In this document: piece by piece, positions 1 through 5,485 of the stretch
Numbering within the stretch: position 1 is the stretch's first letter
Layout of the letters: each line of letters opens with the position of its first letter
Origin: Escherichia phage MG1
Length of the DNA stretch: 5,490 bases
Sequence record: OR702609.1
Direction: 5' to 3' (one strand)
Position numbers and translations under genes: made by a program
Notes under the pieces: generated by a model
Database searches by the model: none
Told to the model about the DNA's origin: nothing
What the model saw: the letters and a program-made list of their open reading frames with translations, nothing else

Positions 1-1635
1 ATGTCTGTAGAATTAGTAAAACCACTCGTCGAAGCTGCTGGCATGTCGACACTTACACAATCCCCAAACCTCCGTATCTGGAAACAGGTAAACACTCGCG
101 TAAAATTACTTGAAGAAATTCTTGCTCACTGGACAAACGGAATCCGTCGCTGCCCTGAAACTCAAGACTTCTACATGAACCCAAATTCTCAATTGGCTAC
201 TACTATTGCCTATCGTGCCCATCAAAAAGGACACAACCCAAAACTCATTCAATACCCTGACACATTTACTCTCGACGACATTATTCGCCGTAAACCAATC
301 CCTCAAACTGCCCCTAACGAATTACGCCTCTCTGATGAAATCGGTGAGGATTACCGCCTTACAGTCATCGCCATTGCTGACGAACTGCAAGAATGTTACG
401 ACGTGCTCGAACAACTTGATATTAATAACACTATAGACCACACCCCTAAAGGTAACGCCCATTGGAGTATGCTTTATGATAAACCTGTTAACACCCATTG
501 GTCACAGCTCGTATCTAAACGACCCCTTAAAGATATCCGCGCCGATTACAACTATGCAAAGGCGAAGGGTATTAAGGATGAATGCTCAAAAATGCTTGAG
601 GAATCCACCATGAAATCAAGACGTGGCTTTACCGTTCAAAGATTGATGAATGCTATGCGCCAAGCCCACACTGATGGTTGGTATGTTGTATTCGACACTC
701 TTACTCTGGCCGATGATCGCATACAGGCTTTCTATGATAATCCCAATGCTCTTCGTGACTACTTCCGTGATATTGGTCGTATGGTGCTTGCTGCCGAGGG
801 TCGCTCTGCTAATGACTCACACGCCGACTGCTATCAGTATTTTTGTGTTCCAGAGTATGGCACACAGCACGGTCGTCTACATTTCCATGCAGTGCACCTT
901 ATGCGCACACTTCCTCTGGGTTCTCGTGACCCTAACTTCGGTAAGCTGGTACGCACTAATCGCCAAATAAATAGCTTGCAAAACACTTGGCCTTACGGCT
1001 ACTCTATGCCCATCGCAGTCCGGTACTCGCAAGACGCATTCTCGCGTTCTGGTTGGCTCTGGCCTGTCGACTCAAAGGGTGAACCCCTTAAAGCTACCTC
1101 GTATATGGCTGTCGGCTTCTACGTCGCTAAATACGTCAACAAAAAATCTGATATTGACATGGCCGCAAAAGGCCTAGGGAATAAAGAATGGAACGCATCA
1201 CTCAAGACCAAAATATCTCTCCTACCAACCAAACTATTCAGAATCCGAATGTCCCGCAACTTCGGGATGAAGATGTTATCAATGGCGCACCTGACCGCCG
1301 AAACATTAATCCAACTGACCCAACTGGGCTACGACTCGACCCCGTTCAACAACGTTTTGAAGCAGAACGCCAAGAAAGAGCTGAAATCGAGGCTGGCAAA
1401 AGCATCTGTCGCGACCGTTTTGGCGGCGCAACCTGTAACAACGAATCTGCTAAAATTTATGCGCGATTTGACCCGAACAATCGGAGCGTCCAACCTGCAG
1501 AATTTTATCGCTTCAATGACTCAGAAATTAACACTCATGGATACTTCTGATGAAACCAAAAACTACCTTGCTGCTGCAGGCATTACTACTGCTTGCTTAC
1601 GAATTAAATCGAAGTGGACTGCTGGTGGAAAGTGA
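1..1635 (+). CDS. A: Replication initiation protein A (rolling-circle HUH endonuclease), 544 aa
   Basis: Long ORF from ATG at 1 to TGA at 1633-1635. Strong similarity to phiX174 protein A from about residue 120 onward. HUH motif HFHAVH at 880-897. Paired catalytic tyrosines in [10 protein letters not shown] (Tyr codons 1120-1122 and 1132-1134). Contains the 30-nt origin at 412-441. N-terminal ~100 aa diverge from phiX174. Confidence 0.93.
412..441 (+). other. Viral (+) strand origin of rolling-circle replication; protein A nick site between G418 and A419
   Basis: Exact match to the conserved 30-nt microvirus origin CAACTTGATATTAATAACACTATAGACCAC as I recall it from phiX174/G4, located inside gene A. 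Confidence 0.85.
610..1635 (+). CDS. A*: Protein A* (in-frame internal initiation within A), 341 aa
   Basis: In-frame ATG at 610 (MKSRRGF...), at the position I recall for phiX174 A*. GAGGA at 598-602, 7 nt upstream. Predicted length 341 aa equals phiX174 A*. Expression not provable from sequence. Confidence 0.6.
977..1005 (+). promoter_or_regulatory. Candidate promoter pB (inside gene A, upstream of B)
   Basis: TTGCAA at 977-982, 17-nt spacer, TACTCT at 1000-1005 (4/6 to TATAAT). Position is about 185 nt upstream of B, roughly where phiX174 pB lies. Weak hexamers. Confidence 0.25.
1188..1550 (+). CDS. B: Internal scaffolding protein B, 120 aa
   Basis: ORF in an alternative frame wholly inside A. 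ATG at 1188 with AGGGA about 9 nt upstream. Same length as phiX174 B, with conserved C-terminus ([26 protein letters not shown]). Confidence 0.9.
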
Positions 1636-1714
1636 AGAAATTCAATCTTGCGTTAAAGAACTCGAGAGGGTCTTACTTTGCGACCTTTCGGCATCAACTC
1701 GCTATACTCTCTAA
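1550..1714 (+). CDS. K: Protein K, 54 aa
   Basis: Not in the ORF track (short). ATG at 1550 overlaps the B stop (TGATG); ends TAA 1712-1714. Third frame across the A/C junction. Translation [54 protein letters not shown] resembles phiX174 K ([15 protein letters not shown]). Confidence 0.75.
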
Positions 1715-1892
1715 GGCTGATGCTCTCGACGAGGAAAAATGGCTTAACATGATGGGCGCTCTTCTTAAGGACTGGTTCCGCTACGAACAACATTTCGTAC
1801 ATGGCAAACGGTCTTTAGTTGACATATTAATCGAACGGGGGTTACTATCCCCCACACAAACAACCCGTAACAACAAAGGAAATACCAAATGA
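1632..1892 (+). CDS. C: Protein C (DNA packaging / stage III replication switch), 86 aa
   Basis: ORF similar to phiX174 C ([49 protein letters not shown]). No in-frame ATG near the 5' end. GTG at 1632 overlaps the A stop (GTGA) exactly where phiX174 has ATGA, and gives 86 aa as in phiX174. An alternative GTG at 1614 would give 92 aa. Confidence 0.8.
1819..1848 (+). promoter_or_regulatory. Candidate promoter pD (inside gene C, upstream of D)
   Basis: Consensus -35 TTGACA at 1819-1824, 18-nt spacer, -10 TACTAT at 1843-1848. Same hexamers and position as I recall for phiX174 pD. Confidence 0.55.
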
Positions 1893-2344
1893 ACTCCAAT
1901 GAATCTGCTGTAGCCTTTCAAACTGCAATCGCTTCTATCAAAATGATTCAAGCCTCATCCGTCCTCGACCTTACCGAAGACGACTTTGAATTTTTAACTG
2001 GTGACCGTGTCTGGATTGCTACCGACCGTTCTCGCGCTCGCCGTGCTGTGGAGGCCTGTGTTTATGGCACACTGGACTTTGTCGGGTATCCTCGCTTTCC
2101 TGCTCCTGTTGAGTTTATTTCTGCTGTTATCGCTTACTACGTTCATCCGGTCAACATCCAGACCGCTTGTCTCATCATGGAAGGAGCCGAATTTACTGAA
2201 AACATCGTCAATGGCGTTGAATCCCCAGTTAAGGCTTCCGAACTCTTCGCTTTCGTTCTCCGTGTCCGCGCTGGCTGTAAAGACGTCCTCGAAGGTGCCG
2301 AAGACAACATCCGCGCTAAACTCCGTGCACAAGGGATCATGTAA
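1889..2344 (+). CDS. D: External scaffolding protein D, 151 aa
   Basis: ATG at 1889 overlaps the C stop (ATGA); AAAGGA 8 nt upstream. Very high similarity to phiX174 D (VLDLTEDDF.FLT, WIATDRSRARR.VEACVYGTLDFVGYPRFPAPVEFI.AVIAYYVHPVNIQTACLIMEGAEFTEN). Confidence 0.95.
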   Translation: MNSNESAVAFQTAIASIKMIQASSVLDLTEDDFEFLTGDRVWIATDRSRARRAVEACVYGTLDFVGYPRFPAPVEFISAVIAYYVHPVNIQTACLIMEGAEFTENIVNGVESPVKASELFAFVLRVRAGCKDVLEGAEDNIRAKLRAQGIM

Positions 2345-2351
2345 TGGCTAA
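2064..2351 (+). CDS. E: Lysis protein E (MraY inhibitor family), 95 aa
   Basis: ORF in the +1 frame inside D. ATG at 2064 with GGAGG at 2050-2054. N-terminal hydrophobic helix MAHWTLSGILAFLLLLSLFLLLSL followed by a basic Ser/Pro-rich tail (RPLVSSWK...), matching phiX174 E architecture. The track ORF begins at an upstream GTG (2001), which I consider an over-extension. Confidence 0.8.
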   Translation: MAHWTLSGILAFLLLLSLFLLLSLTTFIRSTSRPLVSSWKEPNLLKTSSMALNPQLRLPNSSLSFSVSALAVKTSSKVPKTTSALNSVHKGSCNG

Positions 2352-3761: not shown

Positions 3762-3773
3762 AGCCTATAACGT

Positions 3774-3810
3774 GACAGGGGGAAAAATTTTAATTTTTCG
3801 CCCCCTGTCA
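3774..3810 (+). other. F-G intergenic stem-loop (candidate TF terminator and/or complementary-strand priming site)
   Basis: Perfect 9-bp GC-rich stem: TGACAGGGG (3774-3782) with CCCCTGTCA (3802-3810). It encloses AAAAATTTTAATTTTT, itself self-complementary (AAAAA/TTTTT). The same A/T core occurs in the phiX174 F-G intergenic region. Confidence 0.55.
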
Positions 3811-3860
3811 GGTTGAACAAGCGCAAGCGCGTTAGCTGCCTAACTACAAGGACTACTCAA

Positions 3861-4394: not shown

Positions 4395-5432
4395 ATGTTT
4401 GGTGCAATCGCTGGCGGCATCGCCTCTACTCTTGCTGGCGGTCTAATGTCCAAACTGATGGGCGGCAATAAACAAGCCGCCCCCTCAACTCCCGGACAAG
4501 GCCTCTTCGCTACCCCTGAAGCTACTATCTCTGCTGATAATGCAGGTATTCAATCTGTTATGCAGGGACCCAACCCGCCTGGTCCTGACCAAGCGGCTCC
4601 TTCATTTACCGAATCTGCCGTCTCCTCACTTAAGGATGCTGGCAAAGGACTCCTCGATGGTACTCTACAAGCTGGCGGCTCTGCTGTTCAACAAGCTCTT
4701 CTTAACAAAATTGGCCTCGGTGGCAAATCTGCTTCTGATAAAGGCAAGGATACTAAAGATTACCTTGCTGCTGCGTTCCCCGAGCTCAACCCGTGGGAAC
4801 GCGCTGGCGCTGGTGCTTCCTCTGCTGGTATGGTTGACGCTGGTTTTGAAAACCAAAAACAATTAACCAAGATGCAACTTGACAATCAAGTCAAAATCGC
4901 TAAGATGCAAAACGACACTCAGAAGGATATCGCTGGTATCCAGTCTGCCACATCACGCATGAATACCAAGGACTCTGTATATGCTCAAAACGAAATGCTC
5001 CAATACAACCAAAAGGAATCTATGTCACGTGTTGGCGCTATTCTCGAAAACACAAGCCTCACCAAACAGCAACAAACTTCTGAAATTATGCGGCAAATGC
5101 TTACTCAGGCTCAAACCTCAGGGCAACACTTTACTAACTCTCAAATCCAAGAACTTACTCGAAAAGTCGGTGCTGATATTGATGCTGTTCGTGCTAACAC
5201 TGAACGCACCCATGTAGAAACTGACCGCTCAAAACAGGAAGTCCAAAACTCACGTTACGCATCATCACAGGTCGGTAAAACCGCCAAGGACGTATCAAAT
5301 GTCATTAGTGACGCATCTTCTGGTATTGTTGATTATTTTCGCGGCGTTGATAAAGCTGTGGCTGACACTTGGAACAATTATTGGAAAGATGGTAAAGCCG
5401 ACGGAGTAGGCTCCAACATGTCTCGCAAATAG
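4395..5432 (+). CDS. H: DNA pilot (minor spike) protein H, 345 aa
   Basis: ATG at 4395 with TAAGGA overlapping the G stop. Gly-rich hydrophobic N-terminus [16 protein letters not shown] as in phiX174 H. Long conserved blocks ([83 protein letters not shown]). Confidence 0.95.
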
Positions 5433-5463: not shown

Positions 5464-5485
5464 AGCCTCCATTAACACGGAGGCT
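5464..5485 (+). terminator. H-A intergenic stem-loop (TH-like hairpin carrying the gene A Shine-Dalgarno sequence)
   Basis: AGCCTCC (5464-5470) pairs with GGAGGCT (5479-5485); 8-nt loop ATTAACAC. GGAGG lies in the 3' arm and, if the molecule is circular, 8 nt upstream of the A ATG at 1. Only a 3-nt T run follows, so terminator activity is uncertain. Confidence 0.4.

Follow-up and report, generated by a model that had tools for sequence, protein, structure and literature searches.

The window analysed here, 5490 nt of Escherichia phage MG1, is the complete genome of a member of the Bullavirinae. Its closest match is Escherichia phage Lilleput, with 96.4% nucleotide identity over the full length, and identity to the G4-like phages is 79–81%. 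The gene order, A-B-K-C-D-E-J-F-G-H on a single strand, was established from the open reading frame (ORF) map, from tblastn synteny with 11 relatives and from the annotations of ID2, G4 and phiX174. The coordinates of A, B, K, C, D, E and J are exactly those given by the first-pass annotation, whose gene identities and assignment to a microvirus also proved right on the basis of Pfam and PHROG matches and of homologs in relatives. In each of the 11 relatives, homologs of all seven proteins of the block occupy matching relative frames.

All features described below lie on the + strand. Gene A (1–1635, frame 0) encodes the replication initiator, an HUH endonuclease (Pfam Phage_GPA, 1.1e-59), for which gpA is annotated at identical coordinates in Lilleput, and both B and the first 86 nt of K are overprinted on it. 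Inside A, positions 412–441 match exactly a conserved 30-nt Bullavirinae sequence, a match reached by 0 of 200 shuffles and which, from what is known of phiX174, we take to be the origin of viral-strand synthesis. An in-frame internal ATG preceded by a GAGGAA Shine-Dalgarno site (−6.2 kcal/mol) probably starts A* (610–1635), the position being that of the annotated A* of G4 and ID2. Gene B, for the internal scaffolding protein (1188–1550, frame 2; Pfam Phage_B, 1.7e-43), is wholly nested in A/A*, as had been claimed. Gene K, for a small membrane protein (1550–1714, frame 1; Pfam Protein_K, 2.1e-16; PHROG 1713, 5.8e-25), spans the A/C junction, sharing sequence with the 3' end of A and the 5' end of C. 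Gene C, involved in DNA maturation and the switch to single-stranded DNA synthesis (1632–1892, frame 2; Pfam Phage_C, 1.3e-39), begins with GTG, and gpC is annotated there in Lilleput. A sigma-70-like promoter inside C (1819–1848, TTGACA-18-TACTAT, 10/12) is probably the positional equivalent of phiX174 pD, which is located within gene C (PMC11527146). Gene D, for the external scaffolding protein (1889–2344, frame 1; Pfam gpD, 1.6e-81), is the host frame for the lysis gene E (2064–2351, frame 2; PHROG 1472 (lysis), 7.8e-21, residues 1–90). Gene J, for the DNA-binding packaging protein (2344–2430, frame 0; Pfam Microvir_J, 9.3e-9), is followed by a terminator-like GC-rich hairpin with a T-rich tail (2439–2456), the positional equivalent of TJ. 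The Phage_GPA, Phage_B, Protein_K, Phage_C, gpD and Microvir_J matches are above the Pfam cut-off, and E scores under it (18.8 versus 25 bits, with a C-terminal model).

The gene order, the nesting frames of B, K and E, the namesake families and the 30-nt origin are those of the Bullavirinae. The block is thus very probably the canonical A/A*-B-K-C-D-E-J module of a phiX174/G4-type microvirus belonging to the 'Lille' lineage (Lilleput, SECphi17). This overlapping cluster of phiX174/G4-like coliphages is a classic, known since 1976, and its overlapping genes were the first to be reported. All four start/stop overlaps of MG1 (B-K, A-C, C-D and D-J) have also been described for wild-type phiX174 (bioRxiv 10.1101/2020.06.10.143693; PMC11527146), so the architecture flagged in MG1 is an ordinary one and its detection a rediscovery that brings nothing new on genome organisation. 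Its practical use is in annotation: the public records of this lineage list 6 of 11 genes and omit B, K, E, J and A*.

Comparison with phiX174 (Sinsheimervirus) at about 69% nucleotide identity reveals the same gene order and relative frames, B nested in A, K across A/C, the B-K TGATG, A-C, C-D ATGA and D-J TAATG overlaps, and an identical 30-nt origin in A. The two genomes differ at the A/C junction (ATGA in phiX174, GTGA in MG1), in the length of J (38 aa in phiX174, 28 aa in MG1), in the end of E, located 5 nt before the D stop in phiX174 and 7 nt beyond it, into J, in MG1, and at residue 21 of E (proline in phiX174, leucine in MG1). The Lille-group phages (Lilleput, Lilledu, Lilleto, lillemer, Lilleen and SECphi17) are 93.5–96.4% identical to MG1, have the same gene coordinates and share with it an 8-nt E/J overlap and an E protein lacking Pro21; in Lilleen, a 6-nt insertion displaces the E/J overlap and leaves D and J 5 nt apart. 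The publication on the Lille-group phages classes them as gequatroviruses with six annotated CDS (PMC7552041), and B, K, E and J are unannotated in their records. G4 and the ID2-type gequatroviruses carry the same module, with B/K and A/C junctions of the same type as in MG1. In G4, however, C and D do not overlap (+1 nt), 42 nt separate D from J, E passes the D stop and stops short of J, and both G4 E and ID2 E have Pro21, unlike MG1.

The four start/stop strings lie where the first-pass annotation had placed them, each with a −1 or −4 geometry. The B stop/K start TGATG (1548–1552) is a −1 overlap found invariant in 12 of 12 genomes including alpha3, and it is the sole invariant junction: A/C, C/D and D/J are each broken in at least one of G4, alpha3 and Lilleen. 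The A stop/C start GTGA (1632–1635) is a −4 overlap crossed by K. The C stop/D start ATGA (1889–1892), also a −4 overlap, is present in the Lille group, ID2, PJNS002 and phiX174, and missing in G4, with a gap of 1 nt, and in alpha3, with one of 26 nt. The D stop/J start TAATG (2342–2346), a −1 overlap, is missing in G4 (+42), Lilleen (+5) and alpha3 (+1). Two details of the earlier description had to be amended. E had been placed inside D, but its last nucleotide is 2351; it outruns the D stop (2344) by 7 nt and has 8 nt (2344–2351) in common with J. This overlap is specific to the Lille group, the E stop being 5 nt ahead of the D stop in ID2, PJNS002 and phiX174. All three frames had been called coding between 1632 and 1635; three frames are indeed used there, but only nucleotide 1632 belongs to a sense or start codon in all of them, 1633–1635 being the stop codon of A. 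Two further three-frame positions had been missed, namely 1550, which is sense in A and belongs to both the B stop and the K start, and 2344, which is sense in E and belongs to both the D stop and the J start.

The nested frames could in principle be chance openings within real genes and remain untranslated. Interruption of B, K or E in relatives had been proposed as the refuting observation, and no interruption was found: in 11 of 11 boundary-mapped relatives each frame is intact from its ATG to its own stop. Projection on an alignment of 17 relatives, with six IMG/VR genomes added, gave stops resulting only from differing gene ends or from the poor alpha3 alignment. ORF length discriminates less well. 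For B in A, the length exceeds what synonymous-codon shuffles of A produce (2–7 of 5000 reach it), whereas the length of E in D, reached by 614–1099 of 5000 synonymous shuffles, is not beyond chance because +1 frames are generally open in the MG1 genome. Unannotated +1 ORFs of 78–108 codons in A, F and H are likewise open in many relatives. We therefore rejected length as evidence for E and K, whose case rests on homology and site-specific constraint. B, K and E match curated Pfam or PHROG families; E has a match in the E chains of the solved MraY-E-SlyD complex (PDB 8g01_B and 8g02_B); the three frames and their start codons are kept across ∼40% nucleotide divergence; and synonymous sites of the host frames are significantly constrained exactly beneath the conserved cores of the three proteins. 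By contrast, the control ORFs have no family match and are broken in G4, phiX174 and alpha3, and those at 4540–4866 and 4981–5217 in H and 2482–2733 in F gave no consistent constraint signal. All 11 phiX174 proteins are experimentally established. The chance of B, K and E being untranslated frames is thus negligible, and we consider this reading already refuted by in silico standards.

Constraint was measured as the number of variable third positions of the host frame in the alignment of relatives. A simple comparison of positions inside and outside each overlap was dropped, since the negative control misbehaved: third positions of A are also less variable in an unannotated +1 ORF at 650–970. 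This indicates regional heterogeneity, so that plain inside/outside comparisons need care, and we turned to contrasts between sub-segments within each overlap (the transmembrane part of E versus its tail, the N- versus the C-terminal half of B), which are sturdier. Third positions of A are variable at 45% versus 76% under B residues 61–120 (p=1.7e-6) and at 35% under K residues 2–27 (p=1.6e-5), and those of D at 50% versus 93% under E residues 2–35 (p=4.5e-6). The remainder of each overlap behaves like single-coding sequence: 73% of third positions are variable under B residues 1–60, 72% versus 78% under K residues 30–54 and, in the broad cross-clade set, 86% versus 93% under E residues 36–93. 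The 'very strong multi-frame constraint' ascribed to the whole block therefore holds under these three segments only and is overstated elsewhere. Selection on the second frame is centred on functional cores: in B the C-terminal half, which binds the coat, in K the hydrophobic N-terminus and in E the transmembrane helix. Outside them the overprinted protein follows the synonymous drift of the older gene. The map offers a quantitative view in which dual coding restricts evolution only beneath these three cores.

The same arrangement lends itself to a scheme for expression, in which we infer both the transcription units and any translational coupling. All genes of the block would be read off the same strand from polycistronic mRNAs. 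By analogy to phiX174, there would be a promoter ahead of A, another within A serving B-K-C and a third within C serving D-E-J. As to the overprinting, B uses the −1 frame of A, E uses the +1 frame of D and K straddles the A/C boundary; each small gene starts at ATG except C with GTG. Adjacent cistrons abut by −1 (TGATG, TAATG) or −4 (GTGA, ATGA) overlaps, so that on completing B, A/A*, C or D a ribosome would sit on or beside the next start, where it could reinitiate or unfold the RNA locally and so let in a new 30S subunit. The first-pass annotation had taken the shared nucleotides to imply translational coupling; judged from the junction geometry, coupling in MG1 is plausible. Bacterial and archaeal termination-reinitiation pairs (ATGA/TGATG) have the same −4/−1 geometry, with a Shine-Dalgarno site embedded in the upstream gene; the likeness of MG1 to them rests on sequence geometry and, unlike these pairs, one of its junctions is GTGA.

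Alternatively, the overlaps might be by-products of compaction and of start/stop turnover, with independent initiation and little or no role in expression, to which we give an appreciable, though minor, chance. A recognisable Shine-Dalgarno site of its own (−4.9 to −9.3 kcal/mol) precedes each of C, D, E and J, and where alpha3, G4 or Lilleen lacks the A/C, C/D or D/J overlap, a gap of 1–42 nt takes its place. The E/J overlap arose when E lost its stop codon by substitutions that leave D either unchanged or with a conservative Val to Ile replacement. Moreover, a fully decompressed phiX174 is viable (PMC11527146), and the overlaps are thus not essential. On the other hand, the B/K TGATG stays unchanged between genomes as far apart as the Lille group and alpha3 despite varying flanks, and K is almost without a Shine-Dalgarno site, its −3.1 kcal/mol (window mean −1.7) being the weakest in the block, against −5 to −9 for the other genes. 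Removal of the overlaps from phiX174 coincided with ∼6-fold less protein C and with less B (bioRxiv 10.1101/2020.06.10.143693), and −1/−4 overlaps (ATGA/TGATG) generally couple translation in Escherichia coli reporters, where they support termination-reinitiation (PMC6728339). A direct test of coupling for any Bullavirinae junction was not found in the searchable literature. Coupling would probably matter most for K and may matter for the C gene of MG1, with its GTG start in a predicted base-paired region; D, E and J would be able to initiate independently.

The start of C is a private feature of MG1. An A-to-G change at 1632 converts the usual ATG to GTG, whereas the start codon is ATG in six of six Lille-group phages and in all 380 phage records sharing the upstream 28-mer, and the junction reads ATGA in every examined relative with an overlapping A/C junction, which makes the GTGA of MG1 atypical. 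The count for the phage records comes from a search with a 32-mer and its ATG control; the GTG variant was likewise recovered in no IMG/VR contig (six with ATG) and in no metagenome contig (63 with ATG). A 39-mer megablast test was discarded as uninformative, since other nearby mismatches also abolish the seed. G1632 could stem from faulty sequencing or assembly, or be a transient polymorphism, the true phage having the canonical ATGA. Besides the uniqueness of G1632, this reading has in its favour that MG1's precise A and K proteins are absent from all other public assemblies, where we sought the exact genome, so that the base lacks independent confirmation. However, the change leaves the A protein unaltered (AAA to AAG) and causes a conservative replacement in K (N28S), and GTG is a legitimate bacterial start codon. 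In addition, G1632 sits among 10 private substitutions clustered in 1632–1811, all synonymous or conservative in C, which looks like real evolution filtered by selection rather than random error. We accordingly regard an artefactual or transient G1632 as unlikely.

The wider cluster of private substitutions in MG1 (1581–1811) alters seven K residues. Recombination was rejected as its source, given that no database sequence is closer than 94.4% there and that at several of the private positions all other genomes share one base, although an unsampled donor may have contributed it. An upstream GTG at 1614 was also set aside as a start for C: it has no Shine-Dalgarno site (+0.1 kcal/mol) and, while it is conserved in relatives with an overlapping A/C junction, the sequence is constrained by A and K anyway. 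Taking the GTG at 1632 as genuine, the start codon of C is predicted to be mostly paired (probability of being unpaired 0.10, versus 0.57 for an ATG revertant). The private GTG may make gene C expression reliant on reinitiation by ribosomes terminating on A/A*.

The lysis protein is the one point of the block that specialists might pursue. From mutagenesis of the E proteins of phiX174 and ID52, Pro21, which puts a kink in the transmembrane helix, is reported to be required for lysis (PMC11126076, PMC5039524). MG1 E, which has Leu21 and no proline before residue 34, departs from this hallmark of an MraY-inhibitor lysis protein E. It does have the single N-terminal transmembrane helix that in this class carries the lytic activity (residues 6–24, mean Kyte-Doolittle 2.68, comparable to phiX174 E). 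Besides MG1, the clade without Pro21 comprises PJNS002, a Salmonella phage, and the six phages of the Lille group. When E homologs were sought in a database of 5.8 billion proteins, only nine G4/phiX-like sequences came back, all with Pro21, and the Lille-type E is absent from that database. As E is also unannotated in all seven records carrying the variant, this natural form of a structurally characterised 'protein antibiotic' has apparently gone unnoticed. A different MraY geometry, or a different chaperone dependence or target, is a speculative idea to which we attach a low probability. If true, the Pro21-less E would represent a second, naturally evolved way for single-gene lysis to work under the constraint of an overlapping scaffold gene. 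Residues W4, T5, L6, L10–L15, S17, L18, L20, L24, F27 and I28 are invariant across clades, and purifying selection on the transmembrane segment is as strong as in the Pro21 clades. The change from PSLLI to LLSLT at residues 21–25 was achieved through four substitutions that are synonymous in D.

The 5490 nt of the window make up a whole circular microvirus genome, opened at the gene A start codon (ATG). When 50,697 phage records were searched with megablast, the Escherichia phages Lilleput, Lilledu, lillemer, Lilleto and SECphi17 gave full-length matches at 93.5-96.4% identity, Lilleen covered 97% of the window, the G4-like phages ID2, ID18 and G4 reached 79-81% identity, and no record was identical to it. 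The exact A and K proteins of the window were not found in public assemblies. The Lille phages, from Danish wastewater and with E. coli K-12 as host, have been published as gequatroviruses with six CDS annotated per genome (PMC7552041). A 328-kb metagenome contig (FUFK010037421.1) holds many tandem phiX174 genome copies at a repeat spacing of 5386 nt and almost certainly arose when a sequencing spike-in was misassembled. Inside gene A, 412-441 is an exact copy (CAACTTGATATTAATAACACTATAGACCAC) of the 30-nt origin of viral-strand synthesis known from phiX174, and a private G-to-A substitution at 410 (G137E in A) lies 2 nt upstream of it. The F-G spacer contains a long imperfect hairpin (3769-3814); it belongs to the ID2 type, without the insert that in G4 carries the primase-dependent complementary-strand origin. 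In the H-A spacer, a 7-bp hairpin (5464-5485) contains the gene A Shine-Dalgarno sequence (GGAGG).

The block at 1188-2351 lies on the plus strand and involves the genes for the replication initiator A (1-1635, frame 0), the internal scaffolding protein B (1188-1550, frame 2, inside A), the small membrane protein K (1550-1714, frame 1), the DNA maturation protein C (1632-1892, frame 2), the external scaffolding protein D (1889-2344, frame 1), the lysis protein E (2064-2351, frame 2) and the DNA-binding packaging protein J (2344-2430, frame 0). Adjacent genes meet at TGATG (B/K, 1548-1552), GTGA (A/C, 1632-1635), ATGA (C/D, 1889-1892) and TAATG (D/J, 2342-2346). The first-pass annotation had described this overlapping arrangement, and it is confirmed with small corrections: an ORF map and frame check reproduced all gene coordinates and junction strings, and homologs in 11 relatives and family matches bore out the gene identities. 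E, however, does not lie inside D as had been claimed, since its stop is 7 nt beyond the D stop and it overlaps J by 8 nt. Coding in three frames, proposed for 1632-1635, holds at nt 1632, which each frame reads as part of a sense or start codon, but not at the other nucleotides. Two nucleotides that had gone unlisted are also used in three frames, namely 1550, where an A sense codon, the B stop and the K start meet, and 2344, shared by the D stop, an E sense codon and the J start. By arithmetic from the gene coordinates, rather than as tool output, two-frame sequence totals 819 nt, or 14.9% of the genome. The architecture itself is already known, a textbook case that dates from Barrell et al. 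1976 and Sanger et al. 1977.

Openness of a frame is a poor guide to coding in this genome. In 5000 rounds of synonymous-codon shuffling inside each host gene, the B frame of A gave an ATG-ORF of 120 codons in two shuffles and an equally long stretch without stops in seven, whereas 614-1099 of the 5000 shuffles reached the length of the E frame of D, which is thus not exceptional. Moreover, comparable unannotated +1 ORFs are present in A (650-970), F and H, without any family match in Pfam or PHROG. We therefore rejected openness alone as evidence for E or K, and the case for these two genes rests on homology, curated family matches and frame integrity. All seven proteins match homologs in the same relative frames in the 11 relatives, which span 96% to ~60% genome identity. 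Phage_GPA, Phage_B, Protein_K, Phage_C, gpD and Microvir_J score above the Pfam cut-off, and E matches a PHROG lysis family (7.8e-21) and the E chains of PDB 8g01 and 8g02. Interruption of the B, K or E frames in relatives would have refuted the first reading; instead, these frames run unbroken from ATG to their own stop in 11/11 boundary-mapped relatives; when the alignment was projected onto 17 relatives (these 11 and six IMG/VR genomes), stops came solely from differing gene ends or the poor alpha3 alignment. Two ATG ORFs in the +1 frame of H, one of 108 codons (4540-4866) and one of 78 (4981-5217), are open in most relatives, with no family match and no consistent drop in H third-position variability, consistent with generically open +1 frames.

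The window was aligned with the 17 relatives, and variable third positions of A, C and D were counted in a 14-genome set. This per-frame check, which the first-pass annotation had proposed, revealed uneven variability along the overlaps. Where A is alone, 76% of its third positions vary; the figure is 73% under B residues 1-60 (p=0.63), 45% under B residues 61-120 (p=1.7e-6) and 35% under K residues 2-27 (p=1.6e-5). For C, 78% vary where it is alone and 72% under K residues 30-54 (p=0.59). Third positions of D coincide with second positions of E; they vary at 93% where D is alone, at 50% under E residues 2-35 (p=4.5e-6) and at 86% under residues 36-93 (p=0.36). The lack of constraint under the E tail is limited to this broad comparison, because in the seven-genome Lille set (the window, the five phages with full-length matches and Lilleen) the tail is also reduced (17% versus 42% variable, p=0.0043). 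Dual-coding constraint is thus real but restricted to those parts of the overprinted proteins that form their functional cores; the 'very strong multi-frame constraint' first suggested was overstated, the reduction in the 14-genome set being significant only under B 61-120, K 2-27 and E 2-35. Outside these cores, B, K and E track synonymous drift in the older genes A, C and D, and this accounts for their low amino-acid identity (against G4 and phiX174, 46-60% for E and 82-89% for D). The map agrees with the classical analyses of Miyata & Yasunaga 1978, Fiddes & Godson 1979 and Pavesi 2006, as outlined in PMC8227390. Variability at A third positions is also significantly lower inside the unannotated 106-codon ATG ORF at 650-970 (plus strand, frame 1, inside A) than elsewhere in A (11% versus 27%, Lille group). 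This frame has no protein family match and is broken in G4, phiX174 and alpha3. The segment codes for the HUH core of A, and the low variability probably reflects regional constraint on that core or on RNA/DNA structure rather than a gene. Given such regional heterogeneity, we relied on within-overlap contrasts.

The junctions differ in their conservation. B/K TGATG is unchanged in 12/12 genomes, alpha3 among them. A/C is ATGA in every genome examined except alpha3 (26-nt gap) and the window (GTGA), C/D ATGA is missing in G4 (+1 nt) and alpha3 (+26), and D/J TAATG in G4 (+42), Lilleen (+5) and alpha3 (+1). Three of the four proposed couplings are therefore dispensable in viable relatives. In Lilleen (its positions 2344-2357), a 6-nt insertion after the D stop leaves a D-J gap of 5 nt and makes E two codons longer; the D/J overlap can thus vanish inside a very close group. 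Among the genomes examined, the E/J overlap is confined to the Lille group, including the window: the E stop was lost through GGAGTAATG to GGGATCATG, a conservative change in D (Gly-Val-Met to Gly-Ile-Met), and E continues to a TAA across J codons 2-3.

Predicted pairing with the anti-Shine-Dalgarno sequence is strongest for E (-9.3 kcal/mol, GGAGG, against the weaker tcGAGGc of most relatives), followed by B (-6.0), D (-5.6), J (-5.1), C (-4.9, with short spacing) and K (-3.1), the window background mean being -1.7 kcal/mol. The E site (2048-2056) reads GGAGG in the window, Lilleput, SECphi17 and Lilleen and tcGAGGc or ttGAGGc in other relatives, a difference due to a D-synonymous GTC-to-GTG change, and may lift E expression. 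A sigma-70-like promoter (TTGACA-18-TACTAT, 1819-1848) lies inside C at the position equivalent to phiX174 pD, and J is followed at 2439-2456 by a hairpin and T-rich tail. K combines the weakest ribosome-binding site with the sole invariant junction and is the leading candidate for obligatory reinitiation by ribosomes that terminate on B. In E. coli, experiments have shown coupling at ATGA and TGATG pairs (PMC6728339; reviewed in PMC12548453), and the same four overlaps have been explicitly described in phiX174, where a genome with overlaps removed and other changes is viable with ~6-fold lower protein C and lower B (bioRxiv 10.1101/2020.06.10.143693, PMC11527146). Translational coupling in this phage, as the first-pass annotation proposed, is plausible.

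The GTGA junction results from A-to-G at 1632. In A this change is silent (Lys), in K it causes N28S, and in C it turns the start from ATG to GTG. All 380 phage records with the same 28-nt upstream context carry ATG (100% match for the ATG form, 31/32 for the GTG form), and GTG was found in neither IMG/VR (0 versus 6 ATG) nor metagenome contigs (0 versus 63). Private substitutions are clustered here, with 10 in 1632-1811 (binomial p ~2e-5), and across 1581-1811 each of them is either synonymous or conservative for both A and C. Within the K/C overlap (1652-1703), five alter K residues, and K carries seven private changes in total: E11A (nt 1581), N28S (nt 1632), I35V, R44C, N45D, P48A and N52Y. 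No known donor explains the cluster, the closest database sequence being 94.4% identical. Either, then, 1632 is an error, or the GTG start and the cluster reflect real lineage-specific evolution in which C expression leans more on reinitiation. By predicted folding, G1632 pulls the C start codon into a helix (probability unpaired 0.10, versus 0.57 for the ATG revertant). An alternative C start, GTG at 1614, was rejected for want of a Shine-Dalgarno sequence. We record the GTG start as a lineage-specific lead.

The sole element of the block that may surprise a specialist lies outside the first-pass finding. Pro21 is present in the LLPSLLI segment of E in phiX174, G4, ID2, alpha3 and all database E homologs; a review calls its kink 'absolutely crucial' (PMC5039524), and P21A abolishes lysis by phiX174 E and ID52 E (PMC11126076). 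In the window, the six Lille-group phages and Salmonella phage PJNS002, E instead reads LFLLLSLT, with no proline before residue 34. Residues 21-25 (nt 2124-2138; E codons 1-35 span 2064-2168) are LLSLT in place of PSLLI, through four third-position changes synonymous in D (GCC to GCT, GTC to GTT, ATT to ATC, TAT to TAC) that leave its peptide unchanged. Besides the window, only these seven phage records have the variant; E is annotated in 0/7, and the variant was not found among 5.8 billion database proteins. In the proline-less clade, D third positions vary at 4/28 under E residues 2-29, a lower share than the 33/57 in D-only sequence (p=1.5e-4) or the 31/58 under the E tail; Pro21 clades show the same pattern (6/28 versus 50/57). 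This low variability indicates that the proline-less helix is kept by purifying selection. The phages that carry it are plaque-forming isolates, and we record the variant as a lineage-specific lead.
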